A stretch of 64,000 bases of DNA, taken from Acidobacteriota bacterium. Lineage in GTDB: Bacteria; Acidobacteriota; Polarisedimenticolia; Gp22-AA2. The stretch is taken from positions 52,803-116,802 of the forward strand of contig JAGYID010000001.1 in the NCBI GenBank assembly GCA_018606725.1. Reading direction: 5' to 3'. Below, piece by piece: positions 1,660 to 63,685 of this stretch. The notes beneath the pieces are model-generated. The model was given only the letters and a program-made list of their open reading frames with translations, had not been told where the DNA came from and made no database searches. Position 1 is the stretch's first letter. The number at the start of each line of letters is the position of its first letter. Position numbers and translations under genes: made by a program.

Positions 1660-4299
1660 TCAGCCGCCGTCCCGCTCCCGGATCATCCGTCCCAATTCTG
1701 CGAGGAGATTGAGCGCCTGCAGCGGCGTCATCTGGTCGACCGCGGCGCCGCGCAGCGCCTCGACGATCGGGTCCTCGGGCGGCGGGAACAGTCCGAGCTG
1801 GCGCGTCGTCCCGGCGGCGCCCGTTTCCGCGTCCGATCCGGCGGCCAGCTTCGGCCGCCCGTCCCGCGACAGCTCCTCGCGCTCGAGATTCCCCAGGACC
1901 TCGCGCGCCCGCTCGATGACGCGCTGCGGCAGGCCGGCGAGACGGGCCACCTGGATGCCGTAGGAGCGATCGGCCGCCCCCTCCAGCACCTTGCGAAGGA
2001 ACACGATGGTGTCGTTCCACTCCCGCACCGCCATGGTCAGGTTGTGCACGCGCGGCTTCAGGATCGCCAGCTCGGTCAGCTCGTGGTAATGGGTGGCGAA
2101 CAGGGTGCGCGCGGCGACCGCCGGCTGGTCGTGCAGGTACTCGGCGACCGCCCACGCGAGCGACAGCCCGTCGAAGGTCGAGGTTCCGCGTCCGACTTCA
2201 TCGAGCAGGATGAGCGAGCGCGGCGTGGCGTTATTCAGAATGTTGGCCGTCTCGATCATCTCGACCAGGAACGTGCTCTGGCCGCGCGCCAGGTTGTCGG
2301 CGGCGCCGACCCGGCTGAAGATTCGATCGACGAGGCCGATCTGCGCTTCGGCGGCCGGCACGAATGAGCCGGCCTGGGCCATCAGCGCGGTCAGGGCCAC
2401 CTGCCGCAGGTAAGTCGACTTGCCGCCCATGTTCGGTCCCGTGATGATGAGAATCTGCCGCTCCGCCGGGTCCAGCAGGCAGTCATTCGGCACGAACCGC
2501 TCGTCTTGCAGCAGCCGTTCGACGACCGGGTGCCGGCCCTCCGCGAGACGCAGGGAGAGGGTCTCGTCCACGCGCGGCCGCGCGTAGCCGCCCTGCGCGG
2601 CGGCCTCGGCGAGCGACGCCAGGGCATCGAGCCGCGCCAGGGCGCCGGCCGTGGCCCGCAACCGGACGGCGGCGTCCACCACGCCCGAGCGCAGCGCCGT
2701 GAACAGCTCGTATTCCAGAGCCGCCACTCGCTCATCGGCGGTGACCACCTTGGCCTCGTACTCCTTCAGCTCGGGCGTGATGTAGCGCTCCGCCCCGACC
2801 AGCGTCTGCTTGCGCTCGTAGTCGGACGGGACCAGGTGCCGGTTGGCATGGCTGACCTCGAGGTAGTACCCGAACACCCGGTTGTAGCGCACCTTGAGCG
2901 AGCCGATCCCGGTGCGCTGCCGCTCGCGGGTCTCGACCCCCGCGAGGTAGGCGCGGCCGTCGCGCCGGATGGCGCGCAGCGCGTCCAGGTCGGCGTCGAA
3001 GCCGTCCCTGATCAGGCCGCCCTCCTTCAGGGCGGCGGGCGGGTCGTCGTGCACGGCCTGCGCCAGCCGATCGTGCAGGTCGCCGAGCGCATCGATGCCG
3101 AGGATGAGGCGGCTCAGCGACGGCGCGGTCAGGGCAACGCCCAGCGCCGCGATCGACGGCAGGATTCCCAGCGAATCGCGCAGCGCCACGAGGTCGCGCG
3201 CGTTGGCGGTGCCCATCGAGCAGCGCGCCAGGAGTCGCTCGAGGTCGGCGATGCGCGCCAGCATCGCCCGCAGGGCGGCGCGCTCGGTCGGACGCTCGAG
3301 CAGAAACTGCACCGAATCGAGCCGGTCCTCGATCGCCGCGACCGAGCGCAGCGGCCGCAGCAGCCAGTCGCGCAGCATCCGCCCGCCCATGGCGGTGCCG
3401 GTGCGGTCGAGGACCTCGAGGAGGGTGCCGTCCCGCCCGCCGTCGCGGGCGTTCTCGACGACCTCGAGGGTGCGCCGGGTGACGGCATCGAGGATCAGGA
3501 CGGCCTCGTCGGCGTGCCAGACGGGCCGGACGAGGTGGCGCAGATCGGCCTTGTGCGATTCGCGCAGGTAATGGACCAGCCCGCCGGCCGCGCCCACGGC
3601 GAGGTCCCGGCCGGACAGCCCGTACCCTTCGAGGCTGGCGACGCCGAATTGGCGCAGGAGAGTCCGCGCCGCGGTCTCGGGGGCGAGGGTCCACGGCGGC
3701 GCGGCGCTGACGAGGATCCCCTCGAGCGCCGTCGCCGGCAACAGCTCGCCGGCCGGCGTCCCTTCGGGGAGCAGGATCTCGCGCGGGCCGAACGACGCGA
3801 CCTGTTCGGCGAGCGACTCCCGCGCACCCGACCCACGGTGCTCCGAGAGACGGAGGTCGCCGGTCGACAGATCGAGATAGGCGCAGCCGAAGCCGTCGCC
3901 TCCGGGAAGGATGGCGGCGATGAAGTTCGGCTCGGAGGCGCGCAACTGCGCCGGGTCGGTGACCGTGCCGGGTGAGACGACCCGGGTGACGGCGCGCTTG
4001 ACGATGCCCTTCGCCAGGCGCGGGTCCTCCACCTGCTCGCAGATGGCGACGCGAAACCCCTGCCGGATGAGCCGGGCGATATACGACTCGGCGGCGTGGT
4101 GCGGCACGCCGCACATCGGCGCTTCGGTTTTCGTGCCGCGTCCGCGCGCTGTCAGGGTCAGGGACAGGGCCCGCGACGCCGCCAGGGCGTCGTCGTAGAA
4201 CATCTCGTAGAAGTCCCCGAGGCGGAACATGAGGATGGCATCCGGGTGCCGCGCCTTGATGTCCCGGTACTGCCGCAACATCGGGGTGAGCGTATCCAT
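1660..4299 (-). CDS. mutS: DNA mismatch repair protein MutS
   Basis: N-terminus MDTLTPMLRQYRDIKARHPDAILMFRLGDFYEMFYDDA; Walker A ITGPNMGGKSTYLRQ; C-terminus ...LGRMIRERDGG. ATG at 4299 confirmed by reverse complement (cat at 4297-4299). The ORF track extends this to 5007 with a non-MutS N-terminal tail. Confidence 0.92.
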   Translation of the reverse strand: MDTLTPMLRQYRDIKARHPDAILMFRLGDFYEMFYDDALAASRALSLTLTARGRGTKTEAPMCGVPHHAAESYIARLIRQGFRVAICEQVEDPRLAKGIVKRAVTRVVSPGTVTDPAQLRASEPNFIAAILPGGDGFGCAYLDLSTGDLRLSEHRGSGARESLAEQVASFGPREILLPEGTPAGELLPATALEGILVSAAPPWTLAPETAARTLLRQFGVASLEGYGLSGRDLAVGAAGGLVHYLRESHKADLRHLVRPVWHADEAVLILDAVTRRTLEVVENARDGGRDGTLLEVLDRTGTAMGGRMLRDWLLRPLRSVAAIEDRLDSVQFLLERPTERAALRAMLARIADLERLLARCSMGTANARDLVALRDSLGILPSIAALGVALTAPSLSRLILGIDALGDLHDRLAQAVHDDPPAALKEGGLIRDGFDADLDALRAIRRDGRAYLAGVETRERQRTGIGSLKVRYNRVFGYYLEVSHANRHLVPSDYERKQTLVGAERYITPELKEYEAKVVTADERVAALEYELFTALRSGVVDAAVRLRATAGALARLDALASLAEAAAQGGYARPRVDETLSLRLAEGRHPVVERLLQDERFVPNDCLLDPAERQILIITGPNMGGKSTYLRQVALTALMAQAGSFVPAAEAQIGLVDRIFSRVGAADNLARGQSTFLVEMIETANILNNATPRSLILLDEVGRGTSTFDGLSLAWAVAEYLHDQPAVAARTLFATHYHELTELAILKPRVHNLTMAVREWNDTIVFLRKVLEGAADRSYGIQVARLAGLPQRVIERAREVLGNLEREELSRDGRPKLAAGSDAETGAAGTTRQLGLFPPPEDPIVEALRGAAVDQMTPLQALNLLAELGRMIRERDGG

Positions 4300-4410
4300 C
4301 GCCTCGGATCCGGTCGGGCGTTCCTTGACAAGAGAAGGGCTCGCTATTATAAACGCGACGCCGCGCCAGCCCCGCATCCCCGCGGGCCGCGGCCCGGGAG
4401 CCCGCGCCAC

Positions 4411-4791
4411 ATGAGCAGCGATCCGCTGTCGGTCGACGACCAGCCCGCCGGCGCCGACGACCTGGACGAGGAAGACCGGCTGATGCTCGTCCTGTCGTAT
4501 CTGTGGGTCCTGGCGCTGGTGCCGTTCATGGTGTCGCGCAGCGCCTTCGTCCGCTGGCACGCCAAGCAGGGGCTCATCCTGTGCGGCATCACCTGCCTGG
4601 CGTCGCTCGGGGTGATCTTCCTCGGCGCCATCCTCGCGACGCTGTCGAAGATCTTCGCCTGGCTGTTCGCCTTCCTGCTGATCAATCTGGTGCTGCTTTA
4701 CATGGCGCTGGCCCTGGTCTGCATGATCAAGGCGATTCGCGGCGAGCGCTGGACCATTCCGTTCCTCGGCGATCTGGTGGAAAAAATCTGA
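4411..4791 (+). CDS. Small integral membrane protein (DUF4870-like, three predicted TM helices)
   Basis: ATG at 4411. The product is hydrophobic (LSYLWVLALVPFMVS...GLILCGITCLASLGVIFLGAIL...FLLINLVLLYMALALVCMI). It lies on the opposite strand from the spurious MutS upstream extension. Confidence 0.6.
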   Translation: MSSDPLSVDDQPAGADDLDEEDRLMLVLSYLWVLALVPFMVSRSAFVRWHAKQGLILCGITCLASLGVIFLGAILATLSKIFAWLFAFLLINLVLLYMALALVCMIKAIRGERWTIPFLGDLVEKI

Positions 4792-4798
4792 GGCGTCC

Positions 4799-5419
4799 GT
4801 GAGCGAGGCCATCCAGGAGGCGATCCGCGCCCACCCGCTGGCTGCGCCCTTCATCGTGTTCCTGCTGGCGTGGCTGGAGTACGTCTTCCCGCCGGTGCCG
4901 GGCGACTCGACGATGCTGTTCGGCTGTTTCCTGGCCGGCGCGGGGCTGCTGCCGCCCGTGACGGTGTCGGCCGCCGCCCTGCTCGGCAGCGTCCTGGGGG
5001 CGATCACCGCCTACGGGGCAGGTCGGCGGCTGGGGCGATCCTATTTCTTCCTGCGAACCGCCTGGGCGCGTCAGGAGCTGGAACGGCTCGAGCGCGGCTT
5101 CACGCGCTACGGCGCGCGGCTGCTGGCGATCAACCGCTTCCTGCCAGGCGTCCGCGGGTTCTTCCTCTACGCCGCCGGGATCGGCCGCCTCGGTTGGCGG
5201 CCGGTGTTGGTCTATTCGACGCTGAGCAACGTCCTGTGGGTCGCCCTGATCGTCTGGGCCGGCAACAGCCTCGGGGAATCGTGGGAGCAGGTCAGCGTCA
5301 TGTTCCGTCGCTACGTGTGGGGGATTGCGATCGTCATGACGATCTATGTCGGCTGGACGGTGGTCCGGATGCGGCGCCGGCGGCGGCTCGAAGCGGCCGG
5401 CGGCAGGACTACTTCCTGA
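4799..5419 (+). CDS. DedA / VTT-domain family membrane protein
   Basis: DedA-like motifs are present (LEYVFPPVPGDSTMLFGCFLAG...RLLAINRFLPGVRGFFLYAAG). Confidence 0.75.
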   Translation: MSEAIQEAIRAHPLAAPFIVFLLAWLEYVFPPVPGDSTMLFGCFLAGAGLLPPVTVSAAALLGSVLGAITAYGAGRRLGRSYFFLRTAWARQELERLERGFTRYGARLLAINRFLPGVRGFFLYAAGIGRLGWRPVLVYSTLSNVLWVALIVWAGNSLGESWEQVSVMFRRYVWGIAIVMTIYVGWTVVRMRRRRRLEAAGGRTTS

Positions 5420-30679: not shown

Positions 30680-31600
30680 TCAGAATGTATTCTTGAGATT
30701 GATGATGTTGCTAACGTCGAAGGTGCGCAGAAACTGCCTCAACACCGCGAGTTGCGGGTACAACTCCTGCAGCTTGCCGAAATAGTAGTCGCTCTTGTCG
30801 TCCTCGCCCTGGAGCAGGCAAATTTCGCCAAGCAGGTAGTAGCAGTTCTTGACGATGTCGTTGTAGCCCTTCTCGGTCGCCATGGTGAGCGCGCGCTCGC
30901 CGTATTCCCGGGCGGGCTCCAACTCCTTGAGCTGCATGTAACCAAAGCATAAATCCTGGCAGCACTCGACGACGCACCGGGCGTTTTCGTTGCCTTCGGC
31001 GATTTGCATCGACTCCAGTATGATCGTGATCCCCTGCCGGTACTGCTTCTTCAGGAGCAGACAGTAACCGACGTTCTCGCGGACATAGTCGATTTCGGGA
31101 GCGGTGCCGATCCCCGCCTCCTCCCCGAGCCGCATTCCCTCCTTGTACTCGCGCATCGCGTCATCCGGGTAGCTCATGTCCCGGAGAATGTTGCCGAGCA
31201 GGTTGTGGCACGTCGCCCTCCAGGCGACATTGTCGACCAACTCGGTTGCACGCATGGCTTTCCTGGCATAGAACAGCGCCTTGGTCAGCTTGTTCTGGCG
31301 GCGCAGCGCGCTGGCCAGGTTGTAGGACGCGGCGAAGACGATACGTGGATTGCGAGCTTTCAGGAGAATTGCGCGCAAGCCCTCCTCCGCTTGCGCGATC
31401 TCGCCGGCCATCAGGTGACTGGTGCTGATGTTGCAGACGGCGCGGAAGATCAAGGTCTCATCCTGGAGTTCCTCGCCGATCCTGCGGGTCTCCTGAAAAA
31501 GTTCCAATGAACGGCGAAGCTCGCCCCGACGTTCGAGCTGTTCCGCCTGCTCGGCGAGCTGGTTGTAGCGCGCGACGGCGTCGTTGTCGGGAGCGCTCAA
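30680..31600 (-). CDS. TPR-repeat protein (Rap/NprR-like all-TPR architecture)
   Basis: Multiple TPR-like helical repeats throughout. Lower GC than the flanks. 4-nt overlap with the upstream XRE gene. Confidence 0.65.
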   Translation of the reverse strand: MSAPDNDAVARYNQLAEQAEQLERRGELRRSLELFQETRRIGEELQDETLIFRAVCNISTSHLMAGEIAQAEEGLRAILLKARNPRIVFAASYNLASALRRQNKLTKALFYARKAMRATELVDNVAWRATCHNLLGNILRDMSYPDDAMREYKEGMRLGEEAGIGTAPEIDYVRENVGYCLLLKKQYRQGITIILESMQIAEGNENARCVVECCQDLCFGYMQLKELEPAREYGERALTMATEKGYNDIVKNCYYLLGEICLLQGEDDKSDYYFGKLQELYPQLAVLRQFLRTFDVSNIINLKNTF

Positions 31601-31959
31601 TTGCCCCTCTTCAGCCGGTCCTCGATCTGTAGCTTGAACTGCACAAACTCCTGGACCTCCTCCTGGGCGCGTGGGGTCAGCCTCTGGTACTGGCGCATCA
31701 GCTCGTGGTCCCGCTCGCGCGCCTGGCTCGCCAGGTCCTCCTGGAAGAAGTCCGCGATGTTCATCTCGAAGATCGACAGAATCTTGAACAGCGTTTCGAG
31801 ACTGACCTTGTATTCGCCGTTCTCCATCCGGCAGAGATCGGATTGCTGAATGCCGATCCGGCTGGCGAGGTCGGCCTGGGTCAAGGCCCGGTCCTTGCGG
31901 AGTGTACGGATCCTGGAGCCGACCAGCAGAGACTGCTTTTTGAATTTTGACGTCATCAT
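31597..31959 (-). CDS. XRE-family helix-turn-helix transcriptional regulator
   Basis: SRIRTLRKDRALTQADLASRIGIQQSDLCRMENGEY is a Cro/C1-type HTH. Confidence 0.75.
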   Translation of the reverse strand: MMTSKFKKQSLLVGSRIRTLRKDRALTQADLASRIGIQQSDLCRMENGEYKVSLETLFKILSIFEMNIADFFQEDLASQARERDHELMRQYQRLTPRAQEEVQEFVQFKLQIEDRLKRGN

Positions 31960-32038
31960 TGATGATTTTCCGTGTCGATTCCCTAAAGTACCTGTAAAAT
32001 CAGGCAGTTCAGGCTAATGTTTCAGAAGCAAATACATC

Positions 32039-32067
32039 TTGACACGCTTGCCGAGCGACCATATACT
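32039..32067 (+). promoter_or_regulatory. Consensus sigma-70 promoter (TTGACA-N17-TATACT) about 290 nt upstream of the sigma factor gene
   Basis: Read directly: ttgaca at 32039-32044 and tatact at 32062-32067. The leader is AT-rich. Confidence 0.5.
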
Positions 32068-32355
32068 TGCGTCGTCAGCTCACACAGCCAGTCGTGTCGC
32101 CGCGTCAATTTCTTGATGATGCCATCGAGACTCGAGACGCAGGAACCTCGCGTCGGTTTTTCTCGCAGCGGGAAAGATCGGGACGTGAACGTGTGTCTCA
32201 TCGTCACTGCTGTTCACCGACGGAGAGTCTGGCAGTCTCTCGATCCCTGACTACAAAAATTTGACGTAAATCTATGGCGTTACGGTATTGAAGTCAAGGA
32301 GAAAGTCGTCAAGCCAACCCCCGGGGCATGACGGGATGAGGAGAAGGACGAACTG

Positions 32356-33276
32356 ATGGCGAATCGCTCGTTTGAAAGAAGCTCCTGTATCTCGAAGTAT
32401 CTGCAGGAAATCAGCGAATTTCCATTGCTGAGCAAGGAAGAAGAACACGCGATAGCCACCAAGATGCAGGAAACCCAGGCGCAGGGAGGCTCCTACCACG
32501 ACCTGGTGCAGTCCAACCTGAGCTTTGTCGTCAAGATCGCCAGCGAATACAAGAACATGGGGCTGCCCTTCGAAGACCTGCTCAATGAAGGGAACATCGG
32601 CCTGATTGAGGCGGCCCACCACTTCGACCCCCATCGCGGCACCAAGTTCATCACCTACGCCATCTGGTGGATCCGCAAGTCGATCCTCAAGGCCCTGTCG
32701 CAGCACGCCGCCATGGTGCGCGTCCCCAACTACCAGATGAAAAAGGTGCGCAACGTCCGCAATACCGAGCGGATGCTGGCGCGCGAGCTCGGGCGCGAGG
32801 CCGATCGCGAGGAGATCTCCAAGGAATTGCGGGTCACGATCGCCAAGATCGACGAAATCCTGCAAATCAAGATGAGGGAGATGTCGCTGGACGACAAGGT
32901 CGGCAAGGAGAAGGACACGCCGATCTCGGACTACCTGGTGGATGGCCGTTCGACCAATCCGCTGGACGAATTGATCAAGAACGAGAACCAGACGGTCATC
33001 CGGCTCGCGCTCCGCAGCCTCAGCGACCAGGAGCAGACGGTCGTCATCAACCGCTTCGGCCTCGAGGGCGGCCGCGTCTTCACGCTGAAGGAGATCGGCG
33101 AAAAGCTGGGCGTGTCCCGCGAGCGCGTGCGCCAGATCGAAAACCAGGCGAAGAAGCGGCTCCGCAAGCTCATCGCCCGCGAGCATCGCAACGAGGCCGC
33201 CCGCAAGAAGGTCGGCGCCGGCCCGGAGTCGGCGATGGGCGTCCGCATCAGACCCAACGGTTCGATGTCCCACTGA
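32356..33276 (+). CDS. RNA polymerase sigma factor, sigma-70 family (group 2/3-like, no region 1.1)
   Basis: Region 2 (YAIWWIRKSILKAL) and region 4.2 (LKEIGEKLGVSRERVRQIENQAKKRL). Confidence 0.8.
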   Translation: MANRSFERSSCISKYLQEISEFPLLSKEEEHAIATKMQETQAQGGSYHDLVQSNLSFVVKIASEYKNMGLPFEDLLNEGNIGLIEAAHHFDPHRGTKFITYAIWWIRKSILKALSQHAAMVRVPNYQMKKVRNVRNTERMLARELGREADREEISKELRVTIAKIDEILQIKMREMSLDDKVGKEKDTPISDYLVDGRSTNPLDELIKNENQTVIRLALRSLSDQEQTVVINRFGLEGGRVFTLKEIGEKLGVSRERVRQIENQAKKRLRKLIAREHRNEAARKKVGAGPESAMGVRIRPNGSMSH

Positions 33277-33440
33277 GGGCCGGGGGCGCGACGCCCCGGC
33301 TTCATCCCGGTGACGGCCGGCGTGCCAGCGCGTCGCGCCGGCCAGCAACGCGGCCGCGCGCGCGCCCGCGACATTGAAATGCCGCGGAACGGTGTGCTAT
33401 CGTCTGCCGCGGATCACCGCACTGGACGGGGCACCGAGCG

Positions 33441-43327: not shown

Positions 43328-44929
43328 ATGGTCGCCTCCAATCGCGACAGGGTCCCGGCCCGCCCGGTCACGCACCTTCAGGAGAGTGCGTCGATGGCGC
43401 CGCGAAGACTATCCACGAAAGCCCCGGCGACAAGAGCCCCGGGTAACGGGCGGTCGCGAACCGCCGGCCGGGCCCATACCCCCAGACCCACTGGCAAGCG
43501 GCCAAGCGCCGCATCCCGGCCGGGGGAGACCGCCTACCTGCGAATCCTCCGTCAGGTCAGCGAGGCCGCGAACGATGCCACCGGCATCGAGGCGCCGTTG
43601 CGGGTCGCCCTCGACGAAGTCTGCGCCCTGACCGGCTGGCCGGTCGGCCACGTCTTCTTCAAGGCCGAAGATCGCGACGAGATGGTCCCCGCCCCGCTAT
43701 GGCACATGGACGACGCGACCCGCTACGAAACCTTCCGGCGGGTGACCATGGCCACCCCGATGCCGCGGGGGAGCGGTCTGCCCGGCCGCGTCCTCGCAAG
43801 CGGCGAGCCGGTCTGGATCGCCGACATCACCCGCGACCGCAACTTCCCGCGCAACACCATCGCCGAGCCGTTGCACTTGAAGGCGGCATTCGGGTTCCCC
43901 GTGCGCGTCGGCCGCGAGGTCGCCGCCATGCTGGAGTTCTTCAGCCCCGAGCGGGCCGAGCCGCAGCCGGCGTTCCTCGAGGTCATGGACCAGCTCGGCA
44001 CGCTGCTGGGCCGCGCCATCGAGCGGGTGCGGGCGGAGGAGGCGTTCGGCAAGCTGGCGCGCGCCGTGTCCGAAAAGAGCGGCGACGAGTTTTTCGCCTC
44101 GCTGGCCCGGCAGCTGGTGAGCACCCTCGGGGCCGAGCTCGCCTTCATCGGCGAGGTGTCCGAGGACGGCCGCAGCGTCACCGCGGTCGCCGGCTGCGAC
44201 CGGGGCGGCCCGATGAAGGACTTCACCTACAGCCTGGAAGGGACGCCCTGCGAGGACGTCATCATGAAGCAGTTCTGCTCGTACGAGCGCGGCGTCCAGG
44301 AGAAGTTCCCGCGCGACACGATGCTTGCGGACAAGCGGATCGAAAGCTACGTCGGCACGCCGTTGATGGACGCCGACGGCAAGACGCTGGGCCTGCTGGT
44401 GGTGCTGTGGAAGACGCCGCCGGCCAACATCCGCATCGCCGAGTCGATGGTGCAGGTGTTCGCGGTGCGCGCCTCGACCGAGCTGGAGCGCAAGCGCTGT
44501 GAGGGCTCGCTGCAGAAGTTCTCGGCCCTGCCGGAGGTCACGCCGCACCCGATGGTGGAATTCGCCGCCGACGGTACGCTGCGCTTCGTCAACGACGCGG
44601 CCAAGAAGCTGATGGCGTCGCTCGGCAAGACCGACCCGTGGGACATCCTGCCGGCCGACACCGTGAACATCGTCCGGAAGTGCCTCGCCACCGGCAAGAA
44701 CGGCCTGATCTTCGACACCGTCGAGGGCGAGCACCGCACCATCTCCTGGTCGTTCATCCCGATCCTCCCCGGCGGCACCGTCTTCGCCCACGCCTTCGAG
44801 CTCAGCCTGTTCATGGCTCTGCAGGACGAATTGCGTCGCATGCGCCGGCCGTCGGGCCTCCGCCCCCCGTCCGGCCGCCTGAGGGACGCCCTCGACAAGG
44901 TCGACGTCCCCGGCGGCAAGGTGCACTGA
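43328..44929 (+). CDS. Sensor protein with GAF - GAF - PAS domains and no output domain
   Basis: Two GAF-like blocks and a PAS-like C-terminus. An alternative start at 43394 (MAPRRL) is possible. Confidence 0.65.
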   Translation: MVASNRDRVPARPVTHLQESASMAPRRLSTKAPATRAPGNGRSRTAGRAHTPRPTGKRPSAASRPGETAYLRILRQVSEAANDATGIEAPLRVALDEVCALTGWPVGHVFFKAEDRDEMVPAPLWHMDDATRYETFRRVTMATPMPRGSGLPGRVLASGEPVWIADITRDRNFPRNTIAEPLHLKAAFGFPVRVGREVAAMLEFFSPERAEPQPAFLEVMDQLGTLLGRAIERVRAEEAFGKLARAVSEKSGDEFFASLARQLVSTLGAELAFIGEVSEDGRSVTAVAGCDRGGPMKDFTYSLEGTPCEDVIMKQFCSYERGVQEKFPRDTMLADKRIESYVGTPLMDADGKTLGLLVVLWKTPPANIRIAESMVQVFAVRASTELERKRCEGSLQKFSALPEVTPHPMVEFAADGTLRFVNDAAKKLMASLGKTDPWDILPADTVNIVRKCLATGKNGLIFDTVEGEHRTISWSFIPILPGGTVFAHAFELSLFMALQDELRRMRRPSGLRPPSGRLRDALDKVDVPGGKVH

Positions 44930-44939
44930 CCTCCGGCGA

Positions 44940-46322
44940 TCACCCTTCCTGAGCCCGTGCCGCCGACCGCCCGAACTCGATCGGAATTCCGTAGTGACGC
45001 ATGCGCCGGTACAATTTCGGACGGCTCCAGCCGATAAAGCGTGACGCCCGCGTCTTGTCGCCCTCGAAGTTGTGCAGCGCTTTCTCGATCATCATCTGCT
45101 CGCCACCCTTGCCGGCCCCAAGGTACGTCGGGGACTCCTCGGTGATCATCACGTGGCGGACCCGGTCGGGCAGGGCGCTGGCGTCGATGACCTGGTCATC
45201 GCCGAGGGCGACGGCTCGCTGCGTTACGTTTTCCAGTTCGCGGATGTTTCCCGGCCACTCGTAGGACATCAGCAACTCGAGCGTTCCCGGAGAGACATGC
45301 TTTCGAGGCAATCCGGTCTCCACGGCGATCCGTTCGAGGAAGTGTTCGACGAGAGCGGGGATGTCCTCCTTGCGCTGACGCAACGGCGGCAGGTCGATGG
45401 CGATGACGTTGATGCGATAGAACAGGTCGTCTCGGAACGACCCTTCCCTGATCAACCCCCGCAGGCTGCGGTTGGTCGCCGAGATGATCCGGACGTCCAC
45501 GCGGATGGTGTCCTTGCCCCCGACCGGGCGGACCTCCCGCTCCTGCAAGGCCCGCAGCAGCTTGCTCTGCATCCGGACGCTCATGTCGCCGATCTCGTCC
45601 AGGAACAGTGTGCCGCCATCGGCCAGCTCGAGGATACCCTTGCGGTCGCGGTCGGCGCCCGTGAAGGCGCCCCGCACGTGGCCAAACAGCTCCGACTCGA
45701 GGAGACTCTCCGACAGGGCGGAGCAATTCTCCGAGAAAAAACGCCGCTGTTGGCGCCCGGACATCCGGTGGATGGCGCGGGCGACCAACTCCTTGCCGGT
45801 GCCGCTCTCGCCTTGAATGAGGACCGGCAGCGAACAGCCAGCCGCCTTCAGAATCAGGTCGTGAACCCGTCGCATCGCCTCGGTGGCGCCGATGATGCCA
45901 TCTGAGCGTCCGCCGGGGAGATCCGGGACCATCGGCGAACCGGCGCCCCGGGCGTCCGCTTTCCATGCCTCACGGTCGACGAGGGCGTACGGGATCGTCT
46001 TGCTGAGCGACACGATGAGTCGCTTGGTCGCCTCCTCGAGCATCTGGAGATCGGACAGGTCCATCACGCTTTGCACCGATTCGGGCCGTTCGCTCAACGT
46101 ACGGGCCCGGCCCCCCATCTTGCGGAGGTCGGCCAGCCACCCTTCCAGATCGATCCTCCCACACGCGTCAGCGGGCATCCTGTTGGTCCATCCTCCTTCC
46201 GGGTCTGGGGTGTCCTGACTGTTGCCGCGATCTCGATACATGCCAAGCCTGTGGTCAGAGGCTTTCACTGTCCCACAACAGAGCAACGGTGATACCAACG
46301 CGGGCGCAGGTGGCACCATCAC
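44940..46322 (-). CDS. Sigma-54-dependent transcriptional activator (NtrC family AAA+ EBP with Fis-type HTH), no receiver domain
   Basis: GESGTGKELVARAIH, the GAFTGA loop, ESELFGH, and a C-terminal HTH. Confidence 0.85.
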   Translation of the reverse strand: MMVPPAPALVSPLLCCGTVKASDHRLGMYRDRGNSQDTPDPEGGWTNRMPADACGRIDLEGWLADLRKMGGRARTLSERPESVQSVMDLSDLQMLEEATKRLIVSLSKTIPYALVDREAWKADARGAGSPMVPDLPGGRSDGIIGATEAMRRVHDLILKAAGCSLPVLIQGESGTGKELVARAIHRMSGRQQRRFFSENCSALSESLLESELFGHVRGAFTGADRDRKGILELADGGTLFLDEIGDMSVRMQSKLLRALQEREVRPVGGKDTIRVDVRIISATNRSLRGLIREGSFRDDLFYRINVIAIDLPPLRQRKEDIPALVEHFLERIAVETGLPRKHVSPGTLELLMSYEWPGNIRELENVTQRAVALGDDQVIDASALPDRVRHVMITEESPTYLGAGKGGEQMMIEKALHNFEGDKTRASRFIGWSRPKLYRRMRHYGIPIEFGRSAARAQEG

Positions 46323-46544: not shown

Positions 46545-51662
<5,118 letters not shown>

Positions 51663-51746
51663 GAAGTTAGGGAGCGCCAGTGGGGAAGGTCAAGCTCTTT
51701 GAGTAGCAATTCCTACACGATTACGCTTGCTGACTTGGTAAATGAC

Positions 51747-51770
51747 AAAGGGGGCCCGAAGGCCCCCTTG
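51747..51770 (-). terminator. Rho-independent terminator for the repeat-peptide gene
   Basis: On the minus strand, a hairpin GGGGGCC-ttcg-GGCCCCC is followed by TTTGTCATTT. It lies about 30 nt past the stop at 51799. Confidence 0.5.
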
Positions 51771-51798
51771 GGTTCTGAGCTGCAAAGAATATGGAGGT

Positions 51799-52134
51799 CT
51801 ACTTGCCGCCCCAGATGGCCGAGTCCTTGCCGCCCCAGATAGCTGAGTCCTTGCCGCCCCAGATGGCTGAGTCCTTGCCGCCCCAGATGGCTGAGTCCTT
51901 GCCGCCCCAGATGGCTGAGTCCTTGCCGCCCCAGATGGCCGAGTCCTTGCCGCCCCAGATGGCCGAGTCCTTGCCGCCCCAGATGGCCGAGTACATAGAC
52001 AGCACGCGGGCGTATAGGCTCTCGCTCCGCGAGTGGGAGGCGCCGACGAGAGGTGCGGCCTGAACCAGAGACTGGCCGAGGGTCATTGCGATGATGACTG
52101 CCAGGACTGCGACGACTTTGCCCGAGTTCCTCAT
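51799..52134 (-). CDS. Small secreted protein with eight tandem SAIWGGKD octapeptide repeats
   Basis: MRNSGKVVAVLAVIIAMTLGQSLVQAAPLVGAS is a signal peptide. The protein then ends with eight SAIWGGKD repeats, the last lacking its D. The repeat DNA units differ only at synonymous sites. SD gaggggg lies 6 nt upstream of the ATG at 52134. Confidence 0.6.
   Translation of the reverse strand: MRNSGKVVAVLAVIIAMTLGQSLVQAAPLVGASHSRSESLYARVLSMYSAIWGGKDSAIWGGKDSAIWGGKDSAIWGGKDSAIWGGKDSAIWGGKDSAIWGGKDSAIWGGK
51802..51993. repeat. Eight tandem 24-bp direct repeats (coding, within the repeat-peptide gene)
   Basis: The cttgccgccccagatggc[c/t]gagtc units are variants GGCC, GGCT and AGCT, all synonymous on the coding (minus) strand. 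Confidence 0.9.
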
Positions 52135-52179
52135 GTCCATCCCCCTCAAGTGTTCCCGTTTGACTGCGCCGGTCGAAAT

Positions 52180-52196
52180 TGCAGCGTCGATGCCAA
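52180..52196 (-). promoter_or_regulatory. Candidate sigma-54 promoter (TGGCAT-N5-CTGCA, GG-N10-GC) upstream of the repeat-peptide gene
   Basis: The minus strand reads TTGGCATCGACGCTGCA about 45 nt upstream of the ATG at 52134. This matches the -24 GG / -12 GC spacing of sigma-54 promoters. Confidence 0.4.
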
Positions 52197-52522
52197 ACTT
52201 GTTTGCACATGGTGGATGGATCGGTCTAAGTGATTGATAAATAAAATGCGTAAAACGACTCTGGCTATCGATTCAGGCTGGATGTTGGCTGTGCCACCCC
52301 GGGCGGCGAGTCTCATGAGCGTTTGTGGTGAACGACTGTAAGTATATTAATGTCTTCTTGTTACGTCGTGTTTTCCAGACAAAATTCAGGATTTCGTCTA
52401 GTGAGACTAGCGTCAAGTCGTTGTTAAATATTGATTTGCTCATTACAGCGTGTTTTGAGTATCACGCAAAACATCAGTGAGACTCTACTCGCGATACCAA
52501 ATTGAGATTGTCGTGAGGTCTG

Positions 52523-57892
<5,370 letters not shown>

Positions 57893-60730: not shown

Positions 60731-63685
60731 GTGGCATCCAGAGGCAAATCGAAGAAGGGACCGGCCCCGCCGCCGCAGACCCGGGACGGAAGGCGGCAGC
60801 GCCGCCCGCGCTGGGGCATCGCGGCGGTCGCCGCCTTCGTCCTGGTCGGGCTCGCCCTCCTGGTCCCTTGGTGCTCGGTCAAGGTCGGCGAGGCCGACCG
60901 CGTCTTCCGGCGCAACGCCTGGGGCGGCGTCGAGCGGCTGGGCCCCGGACGTCACATCGTCCTGCCACTCCTGCAGCGCCTCGCCGCCTTTCCCACCGGA
61001 CCGCTGAAGGCCGGGGGGTCCGTGGCGCTGCGCTCGCGCGAAGGGGTCAATTTCGAGATCCCGTTCGACGTGGCGGCCGAGATCGCCGATGACAATCTGA
61101 TGCGCCTCCTCGGGGACGCCGCCGGCGGCCCGGGCGATGTCATGCGTGCCGCCGCCGCGCAGGCGCTGTCGGCGTGGGGCGCCGACGCCTCCGGCGAGAC
61201 GATCGTCCTGTTGCAGGGGGCCGACGCCGCCGAGCGGGCGGTCCGGACCGGCCTCGAGTCGTTCGGGTTCGATGCGGTCGGTCTGCGCCCGGGCCGGGTG
61301 CGCGGTCCGGCGGATGTCATCGCCTCGATCACGTCGCGCGCGCTGCGCGATCGCCTGAACGACACGCGGACGCGGATCGCCCTCATCGGCCTTGACGGCG
61401 CCGATTGGCAGATCGTCGACCCGCTGATCGCCAAGGGGCAGCTGCCGACCCTGGCGCGGCTCAAAGCGCGCGGCGCCTGGGGCAACATGCGGACCATGAC
61501 GCCGACGCTGTCGCCGCTGCTGTGGACGACGGTGGCCACCGGCAAGACACCGGAGCAGCACGGCATCGTCGATTTCCTGGTGCATGACCCGCAGACCGGT
61601 CGGAACCTGCCGGTCTCCAGCCGGTCCCGCAAGACCAAGGCGCTCTGGAACATGTTCAGCGACGCCGGCATGACCTCGGTCTTCATCGCCTGGTGGGGGA
61701 CCTGGCCGGCCGAGGCGGTCGACGGCACGATGGTCACCGACCGGGTCGCCTACAGCTTGTTCGGCTACGAGGCGGGAGAGAGGGATCTCGTCGCCGCCAC
61801 CTACCCGGAGGAGTACCTCCGGCAAATCCGACCGAAGCTGACGAGCGACGCCGCGGTGACGCTCGCGGAGGTGCGCCGCTTCGCCGACGTGACGCCCGGG
61901 GAGTTCCGGCAGATGCGCGACCAGATCCGCGACAACCCGCAGATCGCCTATCGCCAGCCGGTGAACCACCTCACCAAGATCCTCGCCAGCGCCAGGTCGT
62001 ATCAGGCGATCGCCCTCGACATCCTCGCTCGCGGTCAACCGCGGGTGTACTCCATCTACTACCAGGGAATCGACGAGGTCTGCCACCGCTTCGCGCACGA
62101 CATGCCGCCGCAGATGACGATGGTGTCCGACGAGGACTACGCGAAGTACCGGGATGTCGTGTTCGCCTATTACCGCTATCAGGACGCGCTCCTGGGCGAG
62201 CTCCTGGGCCGCCTGTCGCCCGACACGACTGTCGTGCTGCTGTCGGACCACGGCTTCGAGAACGGCAGCAGCCGGCCGAAGAAGGACCCGCCCTACATCG
62301 AGGGGAAGCCCGGGCTGTGGCACCGGAAATACGGCATCCTGCTGCTGGCCGGCCCCGGCATCCGGCCGGGCCCGCTCGACACGCACGGGCTGCTCGACGT
62401 GGCGCCCACCGTGCTGTACCTGGCCGGGCTGCCGAAGGCCGAGGACATGCCGGGGCAGGTCATCCGCGAGGCGATCGATCCGCGCTTCGCGGCGCGTTTC
62501 CCCGTCCAGACGATCGCTTCGTACGAGCAGGTCGGTCGTCCGCTCGAGGACGTTCGCATCGCGCCGGCGGCCGCCGCCGAGATCGATCAGGAGATGCTGG
62601 AGAAGCTCCGGTCGCTCGGTTACATCGGCGCGGAGGCGCTGGCGAGCGGGCCGGCGCCGTCCGACACGGCGGGCGGCGCGCCGGGCCCTGGCGGCGCCGC
62701 GGGAGCGGGAGACACCCTGCTCACCGGCTACCTGAACGAGGCCGGCGTCTACCTCGAGAAGAAGGAGTACGCGAGCGCCGAGGCGACCGTCGCCCGCGCC
62801 CTGAAGGGGCAGCCCGACTACCTGCCGGGGCTGATGCTGGCGGCGAAGATCGCCGCGGCGCAGAAGAAGTACGGCGCGGCCATCGACTATGCCCGCAAGG
62901 CGATCGCCAGCGACCCGGAGGAGGACCCGGCGGTCTACGTCGAGCTGGGTCGGATCTACGCCGACAGCGGCCGCGCCGACGAGGGGCTGGCGTTCTTCAA
63001 TGACCTGCTGCGCAGCCACCCGGCCATGGCCGAGCTGCACGGGGCCCTCGGCAGCCTCCTACTCGAACAGGGCAAGACGCAGGCGGCCGAGGCGGAGCTG
63101 CTCGAAGCGCTGCGGATCAACCCGGCGCTCACCGACCCGCTGACCCAGCTGCACACCATCTACAACGGCACCGACCGGGTGCTGACGCTCGAGCCGATCG
63201 TCCGTCGCGGCCTGACGATCAACGAGAAGTCGGTGGTGCACCTGAACTGGCTGGGGCTGATCGAGGAGTGGAAGAAGCACCCGGCCGAGGCCGAGGCGAC
63301 GTACCAGAAGGCGATGCAGTACGACCCCGACTATCCGGCCACGATGGCCAACCTGGGGGCCCTGTACGGCCGGACCGGCCGCCTTCAGCAGGCGGTCGAC
63401 ATCCTCTCGAGGGCGGTCGCCAAGGACCCGGACAACCTGGAGGCTTGGGTCAACCTGGGGGCGGCGCAGGGGAGGATGGGCCGATCGAAGGATGCTGTGG
63501 TGTCACTGGAGACGGCCCGCCGCAAAGGCGTCCGCACCACGACGTTGTTCAACGCGCTGGCGCTCGCCTACTTGCAGGACCGGCAGCGCGACAAGGCGCT
63601 CGAGTACCTGAGACAGTCGCTGGCGATCGATCCGAATCAGCAGGACGCCCGCGAACTGATGGCGGTGGTGTCGAAATCGTCGTGA
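60731..63685 (+). CDS. Membrane-anchored multidomain protein: SPFH-like region - alkaline-phosphatase-superfamily (type I phosphodiesterase / nucleotide pyrophosphatase-like) domain - TPR repeats
   Basis: N-terminal TM helix followed by an HflC-like stretch (VKVGEADRVFRRNAWGGVERLGPGRHIVLPLLQRL). IALIGLDGADW...TPTLSPLLWTTVATGKTPEQHGIVDF and LLSDHGF are AlkP-core motifs. The C-terminal 350 aa are TPR. Confidence 0.7.
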   Translation: MASRGKSKKGPAPPPQTRDGRRQRRPRWGIAAVAAFVLVGLALLVPWCSVKVGEADRVFRRNAWGGVERLGPGRHIVLPLLQRLAAFPTGPLKAGGSVALRSREGVNFEIPFDVAAEIADDNLMRLLGDAAGGPGDVMRAAAAQALSAWGADASGETIVLLQGADAAERAVRTGLESFGFDAVGLRPGRVRGPADVIASITSRALRDRLNDTRTRIALIGLDGADWQIVDPLIAKGQLPTLARLKARGAWGNMRTMTPTLSPLLWTTVATGKTPEQHGIVDFLVHDPQTGRNLPVSSRSRKTKALWNMFSDAGMTSVFIAWWGTWPAEAVDGTMVTDRVAYSLFGYEAGERDLVAATYPEEYLRQIRPKLTSDAAVTLAEVRRFADVTPGEFRQMRDQIRDNPQIAYRQPVNHLTKILASARSYQAIALDILARGQPRVYSIYYQGIDEVCHRFAHDMPPQMTMVSDEDYAKYRDVVFAYYRYQDALLGELLGRLSPDTTVVLLSDHGFENGSSRPKKDPPYIEGKPGLWHRKYGILLLAGPGIRPGPLDTHGLLDVAPTVLYLAGLPKAEDMPGQVIREAIDPRFAARFPVQTIASYEQVGRPLEDVRIAPAAAAEIDQEMLEKLRSLGYIGAEALASGPAPSDTAGGAPGPGGAAGAGDTLLTGYLNEAGVYLEKKEYASAEATVARALKGQPDYLPGLMLAAKIAAAQKKYGAAIDYARKAIASDPEEDPAVYVELGRIYADSGRADEGLAFFNDLLRSHPAMAELHGALGSLLLEQGKTQAAEAELLEALRINPALTDPLTQLHTIYNGTDRVLTLEPIVRRGLTINEKSVVHLNWLGLIEEWKKHPAEAEATYQKAMQYDPDYPATMANLGALYGRTGRLQQAVDILSRAVAKDPDNLEAWVNLGAAQGRMGRSKDAVVSLETARRKGVRTTTLFNALALAYLQDRQRDKALEYLRQSLAIDPNQQDARELMAVVSKSS

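Follow-up and report, generated by a model that had tools for sequence, protein, structure and literature searches.

An AIWG-repeat peptide gene between two kinase-activator genes

In a 64,000-nucleotide stretch of DNA from an Acidobacteriota bacterium (contig JAGYID010000001.1; the whole stretch is called the window here), a gene for a small peptide with a predicted secretion signal and an array of Ala-Ile-Trp-Gly (AIWG) repeats lies between two very long genes, K1 and K2 (Table 1). K1 and K2 each encode a Ser/Thr kinase, a STAND NTPase, tetratricopeptide repeats (TPR), a GAF domain and a sigma-54 activator, or enhancer-binding protein (EBP), in a single polypeptide, and a stand-alone activator, EBP3, follows K2. 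The initial annotation of this DNA had proposed two paralogous fusions of ~1700-1800 aa with an adjacent stand-alone EBP, and the Pfam matches bear this out. The window has a GC content of 68% and is chromosomal, encoding MutS, SMC, HflX, Ddl, SelB and LolA, the last of which points to a diderm host.

The 111-aa peptide consists of MRNSGKVVAVLAVIIAMTLGQSLVQAAPLVGASHSRSESLYARVLSMY, seven copies of SAIWGGKD and a terminal SAIWGGK. Where eight perfect SAIWGGKD repeats behind a signal peptide had been described, the open reading frame (ORF) and seven full units therefore stand, but the eighth unit lacks its Asp. Tandem Repeats Finder (TRF) describes the array as 24 bp × 8.0 copies with 97% match. 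The units read, in order, three times TCGGCC.., three times TCAGCC.., once TCAGCT.. and once TCGGCC.., and the variation is limited to TCG/TCA and GCC/GCT, both at third codon positions in the SAIWGGKD frame. Both sites would be non-synonymous in the other minus-strand frame and one of them in the plus-strand frame. These differences had also been taken as a sign of selection on the peptide; their placement at third positions is confirmed, but a synonymous-only pattern of two sites is weak alone (chance ~0.1), and with only two variable sites and near-identical units the array appears to be mainly a recent expansion.

The N terminus has the classical n, h and c regions of a Sec signal peptide, with MRNSGK as n-region, hydrophobic residues from 5 to 30 (mean Kyte-Doolittle hydropathy 2.09) and an AxA/AP cleavage site, from which we infer that the peptide is exported by Sec. 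An alternative assignment as a lipoprotein was rejected, as there is no lipobox, the window signal peptide contains no Cys, and the LALC sequence of relatives has Leu at -1. AlphaFold2 (AF2) places helices at residues 3-25 and 38-52, confined to the signal peptide and the pro-region, and predicts the repeats as coil with a predicted local distance difference test (pLDDT) score of about 55-65. A calcium-binding RTX-like or other solenoid fold was likewise rejected, on the irregular periods of the units across relatives and the AF2 coil (pLDDT about 60-65). The peptide has no match in Pfam, NCBIfam or PADLOC, and no LTXXQ domain of the ZraP/CpxP/Spy type was detected in it with Pfam or NCBIfam.

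Table 1 Features of the window and, in the last row, of other loci that carry AIWG repeats.
Feature	Position	Strand	Basis and remarks
AIWG-repeat pre-pro-peptide gene	51799..52134	minus	ORF, 111 aa; identical NCBI protein (P0001); family of 87 clusters
Tandem 24-bp units (n = 8) encoding SAIWGGK(D)	51802..51992	minus	TRF and sequence
Sec-type signal peptide (predicted), residues 1-26	52057..52134	minus	Predicted cleavage VQA/AP, ahead of family-invariant AAP
Amphipathic pro-region helix, residues 38-52, ESLYARVLSMYSAIW	51979..52023	minus	AF2 helix; family alignments, consensus GLFD.FL.(L/I)FG
Sigma-54 -24/-12 element TGGCATCGACGCTGCA	52180..52195	minus	45 nt before ATG; sole window match; 18/18 loci
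AGTCTCA enhancer-like site 1	52478..52484	minus	-288 from promoter
AGTCTCA enhancer-like site 2	52402..52408	minus	-212 from promoter
AGTCTCA enhancer-like site 3, inverted	52309..52315	plus	-120 from promoter
IHF-like box TATCAATCACTTA (fits WATCAANNNNTTR)	52227..52239	minus	44 nt upstream of -24 element
Shine-Dalgarno-like GAGGGGG	52141..52147	minus	6 nt before ATG at 52134; GGAGG-like runs at same place in other loci
Intrinsic-terminator-like hairpin after peptide stop	51748..51769	minus	9 bp, 7 G-C pairs, UUCG loop
Sigma-70-like K2 promoter TTGACC-N18-TAACTT (putative)	51664..51693	minus	Cross-locus conservation
K1: Ser/Thr kinase - STAND (AAA_16) - TPR - GAF - sigma-54 AAA+ - HTH_8	52523..57892	minus	Pfam; 1789 aa
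K2: Ser/Thr kinase - STAND (AAA_16) - TPR - GAF - sigma-54 AAA+ - HTH_8	46545..51662	minus	Pfam; 1705 aa
EBP3: stand-alone sigma-54 activator	44940..46322	minus	Pfam; ~70% identical across loci
HD-GYP - GAF - GGDEF membrane protein, ~6 N-terminal transmembrane (TM) helices	58080..60605	minus	Pfam, TM scan; usually upstream of K1
Band_7 - Phosphodiest - TPR protein, single TM (26-55) after basic N-terminus	60731..63685	plus	Pfam, TM scan; divergent, usually cassette edge
GAF-GAF-PAS protein, variable accessory gene	43328..44929	plus	Pfam; convergent with EBP3; orthologue in L004/L005 only
S8 peptidases with AIWG tails	L033 5690-7492(-), L053 2844-4763(-), L085 677-2479(+), L120 1469-3289(+), L129 6091-7914(-)		At least about 15 more loci

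The peptide gene has a conserved sigma-54 control region

The element TTGGCATCGACGCTGCA upstream of the peptide gene is the single match to TGGCAY-N5-YTGCW in the 64 kb, where 0.08 would be expected. The pattern TGGCAT-N4-G-(T/C)TGC(T/A) recurs 37-122 nt before the start codon in all 18 loci with distinct peptides, with TGGCAT and TGC invariant and the four spacer positions free, which is the footprint expected of a functional -24/-12 promoter. The -24/-12 element of the initial annotation is thus upheld, and no further sigma-54 promoters and no further AIWG genes were found in the cassette formed by the peptide gene and its neighbours.

Three of the window's seven AGTCTCA copies fall inside the 388-bp spacer between K1 and the peptide gene. 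GTCTCA/TGAGAC is the most enriched word of the spacers, with 21 occurrences in seven upstream regions where 1.2 are expected and none of 2000 shuffles gave more than 6. Each of the 15 full-length upstream regions contains AGTCTCA, at -97 to -301 with clusters near -270, -255, -205 and -115, and some copies are arranged as palindromes. Closer to the promoter, a (T/A)TCAA box lies at an equal distance (~44 nt) in 9/10 aligned loci (8 distinct sequences) and is presumably bound by integration host factor (IHF), although the strict IHF consensus is satisfied in two loci, the window and L004. A GC-rich hairpin follows the peptide stop codon in 10/10 loci. The terminator had been called "clean"; in the window the GC hairpin is indeed there, but its T tract is interrupted (TTTGTCATTT). 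Taken together, it is well supported by these conserved sequence features that the peptide gene would be a monocistronic, sigma-54-dependent and enhancer-controlled unit.

Right after the hairpin, CTTGMC-N17/18-TAnnTT is found in 10/10 loci, with a -10 box that ends 7-8 nt before the K2 start; this arrangement lies at 51654-51693 in the window and in the corresponding stretches of L001-L008 and L130-L132. In the window it ends 7 nt before an ATG at 51656, which fits the orthologues and is probably the true K2 start; the TTG at 51662 in the ORF list is doubtful. From this conservation K2 appears to have a sigma-70-type promoter of its own, and with the box so close to the start codon its mRNA is probably leaderless; a stricter sigma-70 promoter scan of the window did not call this promoter.

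AIWG peptides form a rare family of small proteins

A sequence search with the window peptide returned five relatives, and a profile search gave 87 clusters at 90% identity, with every member 59-141 aa and most 65-110 aa long. An exhaustive hidden Markov model (HMM) scan of 1.84 billion representative proteins found 60 members, all of them small, and on the evidence of these searches the AIWG peptide family is rare. It is also new: no domain model describes it and the cassette is undescribed, with no relevant literature matches for AIWGG, GAIWG or SAIWG strings or for the Pfam architecture.

Members are built from a signal peptide that closes with AAP (86/87 members), ~10 variable residues, an amphipathic helix and then 1-8 G-A-I-W-G units. 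Among 238 units the commonest residues at the core positions are G (200), A (230), I (213), W (238) and G (207). The units follow one another with a period of 5 to 38 residues and spacers of 0-33 residues. In 47/87 members exactly two cysteines follow the last unit, as C-x2-5-C at the extreme C terminus, while members without this loop mostly have GGH or GGK/KP ends. The most divergent members carry one unit only and consist of a signal peptide, the helix, a P/S/T/G-rich linker and S-T-D-G-A-I-W-G-(G)-C...C; for a single-copy member AF2 places the pro-region helix at 41-51. A single C-terminal copy with a two-cysteine loop is the ancestral-looking form, and the window protein has the family's largest copy number and no Cys loop. 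Its nearest relative, P0002, shares 74% identity in the best local alignment, which spans 69% of the query, and has four copies of GAIWGPN; since others have 1-6 copies and other spacers, the octapeptide is not conserved and only the AIWG core is. The initial annotation had itself counted a failure of repeat number or sequence to be conserved as evidence against its proposal, and for the octapeptide that is formally what was found, with the core G-A-I-W-G alone kept.

As a separate observation, the peptide ORF at the P0004 locus (L003 707-760) closes ...AIWGGKP-TAG, with a third unit, AIWGGNTPGGGNH-TAA, in frame behind it. Either a recent nonsense mutation has shortened a three-copy gene here, or the site is a candidate for read-through.

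The family comparison bears directly on whether the window ORF is a gene at all. Replication slippage could have produced repetitive DNA that is open by chance, and the 97% identity of the units, their recent expansion and the two other frames that are open across the repeat would all fit such an origin. However, the 87 relatives keep the signal peptide, AAP, the helix and AIWG despite diverged DNA, spacers and copy numbers, which argues for a real, selected protein, and the promoter, ribosome-binding site and terminator are conserved as well. By this comparison a non-functional ORF is effectively refuted and can be given next to no chance.

The conserved helix raises another possibility, namely that the product is a membrane-active effector of the surfactant, antimicrobial or envelope-stress type, whose helix and interfacial Trp insert into membranes or hydrophobic surfaces. 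The segment GLFD.FL.(L/I)FGAIWG is strongly amphipathic and Gly/aromatic-rich, and we take it to resemble amphibian peptides of the GLFD type as well as fusion or stem peptides of viruses; literature matches to FGAI(W/Y)G-type strings came only from papers on amphibian and viral fusion peptides, and a C-terminal Cys loop is common among secreted defence peptides. The likeness is one of composition, not homology, and the repeat units are net neutral (the window pairs K with D). No immunity or export gene is present, and the only other envelope-related member of the cassette is the HD-GYP/GGDEF membrane protein. We therefore consider a membrane-active effector improbable.

K1, K2 and EBP3 are intact sigma-54 activators

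PF00158 (Sigma54_activat) scores 230-241 bits in K1, K2 and EBP3, and all three contain HTH_8 as well as intact GAFTGA and Walker A (GESGTGK/GDSGTGK) motifs. The kinase domains of K1 and K2 match PF00069 with 150-153 bits. In K1, HNDIKPQN and DFG are kept in all 6 orthologues examined. In the window K2, HGDLKPEN is present and DLG replaces DFG, and the regular expression H-x-D-[IL]-K-P-x-N has no match in the full-length K2 of L006 (10408-15537) and L008 (10365-15536). The kinase activity of K2 is therefore less certain, and K2 may be drifting to a pseudokinase in some lineages. PF13191 (AAA_16) exceeds its cutoff of 32.6 bits in K1 (93.3) and in K2 (40.1), both proteins have TPR_12 above cutoff together with TPR_2 matches, and a TM scan found no transmembrane helix in either, consistent with cytoplasmic proteins that carry TPR sensors. 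K1 and K2 are 41% identical in the GAF-EBP part and 33% in the kinase, and their STAND-TPR parts are barely alignable; judged by these alignments they are old paralogues.

Helix-turn-helix (HTH) regions were compared at the C termini of K1 (52523-52700), K2 (46545-46730) and EBP3 (44940-45120). Those of K2 and EBP3 are almost identical (RYIGWNRQKLYRRMK and RFIGWSRPKLYRRMR) and kept in all loci, whereas that of K1 is different (LGISRATLFRKLK). Because of this difference, at least two DNA specificities appear to converge on the cassette: K2 and EBP3 probably compete for or share one type of site, and K1 probably recognises another. The listed EBP3 start is a GTG, and orthologues align only from residue 39-49, with the true start probably a Met near 46178. 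EBP3 also has a ~90-residue N-terminal region without a recognisable domain; of all cassette genes it is the best conserved.

K1 and K2 resemble NifA in their C-terminal third, where the alignment covers GAF and AAA+ (K1 GAF-AAA+ against NifA PDB 9qq6, E = 9e-80), with GAFTGA and HTH_8 in common. However, K1 and K2 have ~1250 aa of kinase, STAND NTPase and TPR fused N-terminally, no nif genes are nearby, and their TIGR01817 scores of 356-402 bits lie under the NifA equivalog cutoff of 529. The Hanks kinase, AAA_16 NTPase and TPR sensor are shared with the TOMM kinase/cyclase fusions (TIGR03903) and with PknK/MalT-like proteins. Proteins of TIGR03903 also sit beside small peptide precursor genes. 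In K1 and K2, in contrast, the output is GAF and sigma-54 AAA+ rather than a cyclase, TOMM machinery is absent, and TIGR03903 gives 154-180 bits against a cutoff of 706.

Homologues with the kinase-STAND-TPR-GAF-EBP architecture number 460 proteins at E <= 1e-50 and are automatically annotated as "Nif-specific regulatory protein" or "sigma 54-interacting transcriptional regulator"; among them the peptide is tied to one orthologous kinase-EBP pair alone. K1 orthologues are 44-59% identical and include proteins from a Ca. Polarisedimenticolia metagenome-assembled genome (55%) and an "Acidobacteriota bacterium" (52%). Further off are homologues from Thermoanaerobaculia, and one 48% match is labelled Ca. 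Cryosericum. A myxobacterial origin, which the high GC content and the wealth of kinase and EBP genes could suggest, was rejected on these names; the lineage is most likely an uncultured class of Acidobacteriota, in which the kinase-STAND-TPR-GAF-EBP architecture is common. Gene callers cut K2 down to its GAF-EBP part in five loci, although an unbroken ORF of 1709-1730 aa is present there and can be aligned over its entire length.

K2 also stands out in its codon usage. The GC content at third codon positions (GC3) of its kinase-STAND-TPR part (window 48000-51662, ~3.6 kb) is 0.50-0.66, compared with ~0.9 in K1 and the neighbouring genes, and the same part is low in GC3 in L004 (10285-13900), L006 (10408-14000), L008 (10365-14000) and L131 (10423-14000). 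Summed over the five loci, codon counts in this part of K2 and in K1 are 107 and 2 for CTA, 45 and 1 for TTA, 83 and 2 for TCA, 53 and 2 for ATA, and 93 and 3 for ATT. The low GC3 is shared by five lineages whose K2 proteins are only 40-44% identical and whose ORFs are intact. Having been maintained over such a long evolutionary time, the bias does not reflect recent transfer, and it may throttle the translation of K2.

The K1-peptide-K2 order is conserved

Loci with a family peptide share one order: the end of the K1 orthologue, an AT-rich spacer of 360-410 bp, the peptide gene, the hairpin and the start of the K2 orthologue. The K1-peptide-K2 order was found in every family contig with enough flank (about 18 distinct peptides), among them short contigs and the long contigs L004, L006, L008, L130, L131 and L132. 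In the reverse direction, Joint Genome Institute (JGI) metagenomes were searched with an alignment of the N-terminal 1250 aa of K1. The peptide and its promoter were present in 9/9 K1-orthologue loci that extend far enough downstream (40-53% identical in those 1250 aa), K2 came next in 8/8 loci, and in a tenth K1-orthologue locus the peptide is interrupted by the contig end. Kinase-EBP loci that are at most 35% identical over the N-terminal 1250 aa (L154, L155, L157, L133 and L134, the last two from a separate contig look-up rather than the reverse search) have no peptide, K2 or sigma-54 element. Co-occurrence of the repeat peptide with kinase-EBP genes, a check that had been suggested beforehand, therefore held in all testable loci, with solo paralogues lacking the peptide. 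One of these solo K1-like paralogues (L133 8001-14206; 40% identical, without peptide or K2) is convergent with a radical-SAM/SPASM gene and glycosyltransferase genes.

The outer genes of the cassette are less constant. The HD-GYP-GAF-GGDEF gene occurs in the window, L004, L006, L008, L132, L135-L139, L147 and L149, and the Band_7-Phosphodiest-TPR gene is conserved in L004, L006, L008 and L132; both are absent from L131. In the closer clade K2 is followed by EBP3. This reduces the minimal conserved core to K1, the peptide gene and K2. Neither the window nor the ~18 conserved neighbourhoods contain a radical-SAM, P450, cyclodehydratase, peptidase, ABC exporter or immunity gene. Nor is a transporter or assembly gene linked to the peptide gene. 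An anti-phage defence system was considered and rejected, as PADLOC gives generic kinase and RtcR-type AAA+ matches only. By its gene content, the cassette appears to be a self-contained regulatory unit whose sole non-regulatory product is the small secreted peptide.

This gene content also bears on the idea that the peptide is the multi-core precursor of a ribosomally synthesised and post-translationally modified peptide (RiPP), with the Trp, or Trp and Lys, modified by enzymes encoded elsewhere, for example by radical-SAM Trp cross-linking as in streptide or WGK-type peptides. Short repeated cores with an invariant Trp would suit such a precursor, the W-G-G-K of the window presumably resembles the substrates of Lys-Trp cross-linking, and the kinase-AAA_16-TPR proteins do give TIGR03903 matches, although these are sub-threshold and far under the cutoff. 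Against it, genes for a modifying enzyme, a peptidase or an ABC exporter are missing from the ~18 neighbourhoods, conservation does not extend to the Lys, and the Sec signal peptide would take the substrate away from cytoplasmic enzymes. We regard a RiPP precursor as very improbable.

Elsewhere in the window, Rfam and tRNA scans of the 64 kb gave no matches. MutS (1660-5007, minus strand) has a ~240-residue N-terminal extension before MutS domain I. A second patch of low GC content (31000-33400; 0.56-0.60 compared with ~0.70) holds a gene for a 306-aa sigma-70-family protein (32356-33276) with regions 1.2, 2, 3 and 4.

AIWG repeats also end secreted S8 peptidases

A scan of genome contigs with a three-copy AIWG DNA pattern gave at least 120 loci and brought up a second group of AIWG proteins, secreted subtilisin-like S8 peptidases that end in 5-14 tandem (S/T/N)-A-I-W-G-(S/T/D/R/Q) hexapeptides and a conserved ...x-G-E/D-(N/K) C terminus. 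Their hosts are Acidobacteriota (Terriglobia, Bryobacterales) and Armatimonadota (Chthonomonadaceae). The tail has no counterpart among the models of Pfam or NCBIfam and appears from its sequence to be an undescribed repeat domain. The tails and the peptide family have the identical A-I-W-G core in tandem, occur in secreted proteins and come partly from the same phylum. They differ in the 6-residue period of the tails, the attached 450-aa protease, the ...xGE(N/K) end and the lack of linkage to kinase-EBP genes, and the peptide-family HMM has no match among the 120 AIWG-pattern loci listed.

The S8 tails indicate that AIWG can work inside intact secreted proteins. The cassette peptide could likewise be an uncut small periplasmic or surface repeat protein in which the AIWG units together provide a multivalent means of binding or assembling envelope polymers, a partner protein or the protein itself. 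It would then be the dedicated effector of the cassette and possibly a feedback modulator. In ZraP-ZraSR and CpxP-CpxAR, the regulator mainly targets a neighbouring gene whose small periplasmic product modulates the regulator by feedback, and zraP is sigma-54 dependent. As in those systems, the cassette has a small exported protein with a dedicated promoter under a neighbouring activator, and zraP also has a sigma-54 promoter with an upstream activator site. The cassette peptide, however, shows no sequence or domain similarity to ZraP or CpxP (no LTXXQ) and is a short-motif repeat rather than a helical bundle, and its regulators are cytoplasmic kinase-STAND-EBP fusions rather than a membrane histidine kinase and a response regulator. 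An intact protein would account for the conserved pro-region helix, the disulfide loop predicted in 47/87 members and the absence of a linked protease from the conserved neighbourhoods, and the co-conserved membrane HD-GYP/GGDEF and Band_7-Phosphodiest-TPR proteins (predicted to face the periplasm) are possible partners. A defined fold is nevertheless hard to reconcile with periods of 5 to 38 residues and 1-8 copies even among close relatives; AF2 predicts coil at low pLDDT, there is no LTXXQ or other domain match, and the S8 tails have a regular period and no detectable homology to the peptide family. We hold an intact repeat protein to be possible, if doubtful, and rank it as the most serious competitor of the processed signal discussed below.

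The peptide as a candidate processed signal

The reading we put first, tentatively and as something short of probable, is that the peptide is a processed signalling pro-peptide analogous to the propeptides of RRNPP systems. The initial annotation had likewise thought of a multi-core precursor or a secreted repeat-peptide signal, which is plausible. The RRNPP signature combines a Sec-exported propeptide of 10-100 aa with a cytoplasmic, TPR-containing receptor of 250-500 aa encoded by a directly neighbouring gene (PMC10075063). Four of its five points recur in the cassette, Sec export among them as a prediction from the signal-peptide features described above, and the receptors depart from it in size; the family peptides are 59-141 aa long, most of them 65-110 aa, and that of the window 111 aa. 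RRNPP propeptides whose pheromone unit is duplicated in tandem have also been described (PMC11343458).

As in the RRNPP(A) and arbitrium systems of Bacillota and their phages (Rap-Phr, PlcR-PapR, NprR-NprX, AimR-AimP), a small gene for a Sec-type propeptide adjoins that of a cytoplasmic TPR regulator, and the linked genes are all regulators. In contrast to those systems, the candidate receptors are ~1700-aa kinase-STAND-TPR-GAF-sigma-54 activators with no homology to RRNPP receptors, two paralogues of them flank the peptide gene with a third activator in addition, the output runs through a sigma-54 promoter, the system sits in a diderm acidobacterium, and the core is nearly invariant. The likeness is one of analogy, not membership.

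Multi-copy secreted precursors are known from yeast alpha-factor, plant CLE and CEP peptides, cyanobactin PatE and fungal dikaritins. The cassette peptide resembles them in its signal or leader, tandem short cores, variable spacers and a copy number that varies between relatives. It differs in the lack of a linked dedicated protease or modifying enzyme and of an obvious common cleavage site in the spacers, and in its conserved pro-region helix, bacterial host and sigma-54 control.

A signalling function is favoured by the exclusively regulatory nature of the linked genes, by a conserved part that is a very short C-terminal motif behind a variable linker, by a copy number and spacers that are free as in multi-copy pheromone and hormone precursors, and by neighbours that are cytoplasmic TPR-containing regulators. 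In the mechanism we propose, the peptide gene would be transcribed alone from the sigma-54 promoter, with its IHF-like box, AGTCTCA sites, Shine-Dalgarno sequence and hairpin terminator. From domain content and adjacency, we infer that the neighbouring activators K1, K2 and/or EBP3 act on this promoter by binding AGTCTCA; their GAF, STAND-TPR or kinase modules would sense a signal, and ATP would then be used to open the sigma-54 promoter. The product would be exported by Sec and, from its sequence features, cleaved at AxA/AP, giving a pro-peptide made of the amphipathic helix and the AIWG units that in half of the family would end in a disulfide-closed C-x2-5-C loop. Hypothetically, the AIWG units would be the active extracytoplasmic signal, freed singly or in multiples. 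The signal could return to the cytoplasm and be bound there by the TPR sensor of K1 or K2, as in RRNPP systems; alternatively, the GAF domains and the membrane HD-GYP/GGDEF protein, which is co-conserved, could mediate its effect. On this view the window, with its eight copies, would hold a dosage-amplified variant.

Several observations weigh against a processed signal. No import system or processing protease is linked in the window or the ~18 neighbourhoods, and neither K1 nor K2 has a periplasmic domain. Peptide pheromones usually diversify along with their receptors, yet the AIWG core hardly varies within the family. The pro-region helix is conserved as strongly as the AIWG motif, which would be unusual for a discarded pro-region, and the disulfide loop would fit extracytoplasmic life better than cytoplasmic re-import. 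In Acidobacteriota and Armatimonadota, moreover, S8 proteases carry an AIWG hexapeptide repeat as their C-terminal tail, and AIWG may be a binding or assembly motif of intact proteins. Finally, the K1 HTH is unlike that of K2 and EBP3.

Significance

The principles at work in the cassette are known, namely sigma-54 enhancers, multi-copy peptides that are secreted, and the placing of a peptide gene next to a TPR regulator. The novelty lies in the peptide family, in how strictly it is paired with two kinase-STAND-GAF-EBP paralogues and in its presence in Acidobacteriota. The comparison brings to light a protein family without annotation, missed by gene callers as well as domain databases, next to a K2 that callers systematically truncate. 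The cassette unites a Hanks kinase, a STAND switch, a GAF sensor and sigma-54 activation within the same polypeptide, for which a single target promoter can be identified, and so makes a widespread, unstudied regulator architecture tractable. With a 388-bp control region, three candidate activators and one small secreted product, it is a compact, testable system that could be hosted by Escherichia coli, which has sigma-54.

Acidobacteriota are among the most abundant soil bacteria, and to our knowledge their signalling biology is essentially unknown. Bacillota and their phages are considered the specialists in signalling by ribosomal peptides through cytoplasmic TPR receptors. With considerable reserve, and as an idea that may well be wrong, we suggest that the cassette could be a diderm peptide autoinducer circuit, in which a Sec-exported precursor releases AIWG peptides that are sensed, directly or via the HD-GYP/GGDEF protein, by K1 and K2, themselves activators of the precursor gene and kinases for other targets. 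If this were true, it would be an autoinducer circuit that is RRNPP-like in function and built from unrelated parts, and the first outside Bacillota.

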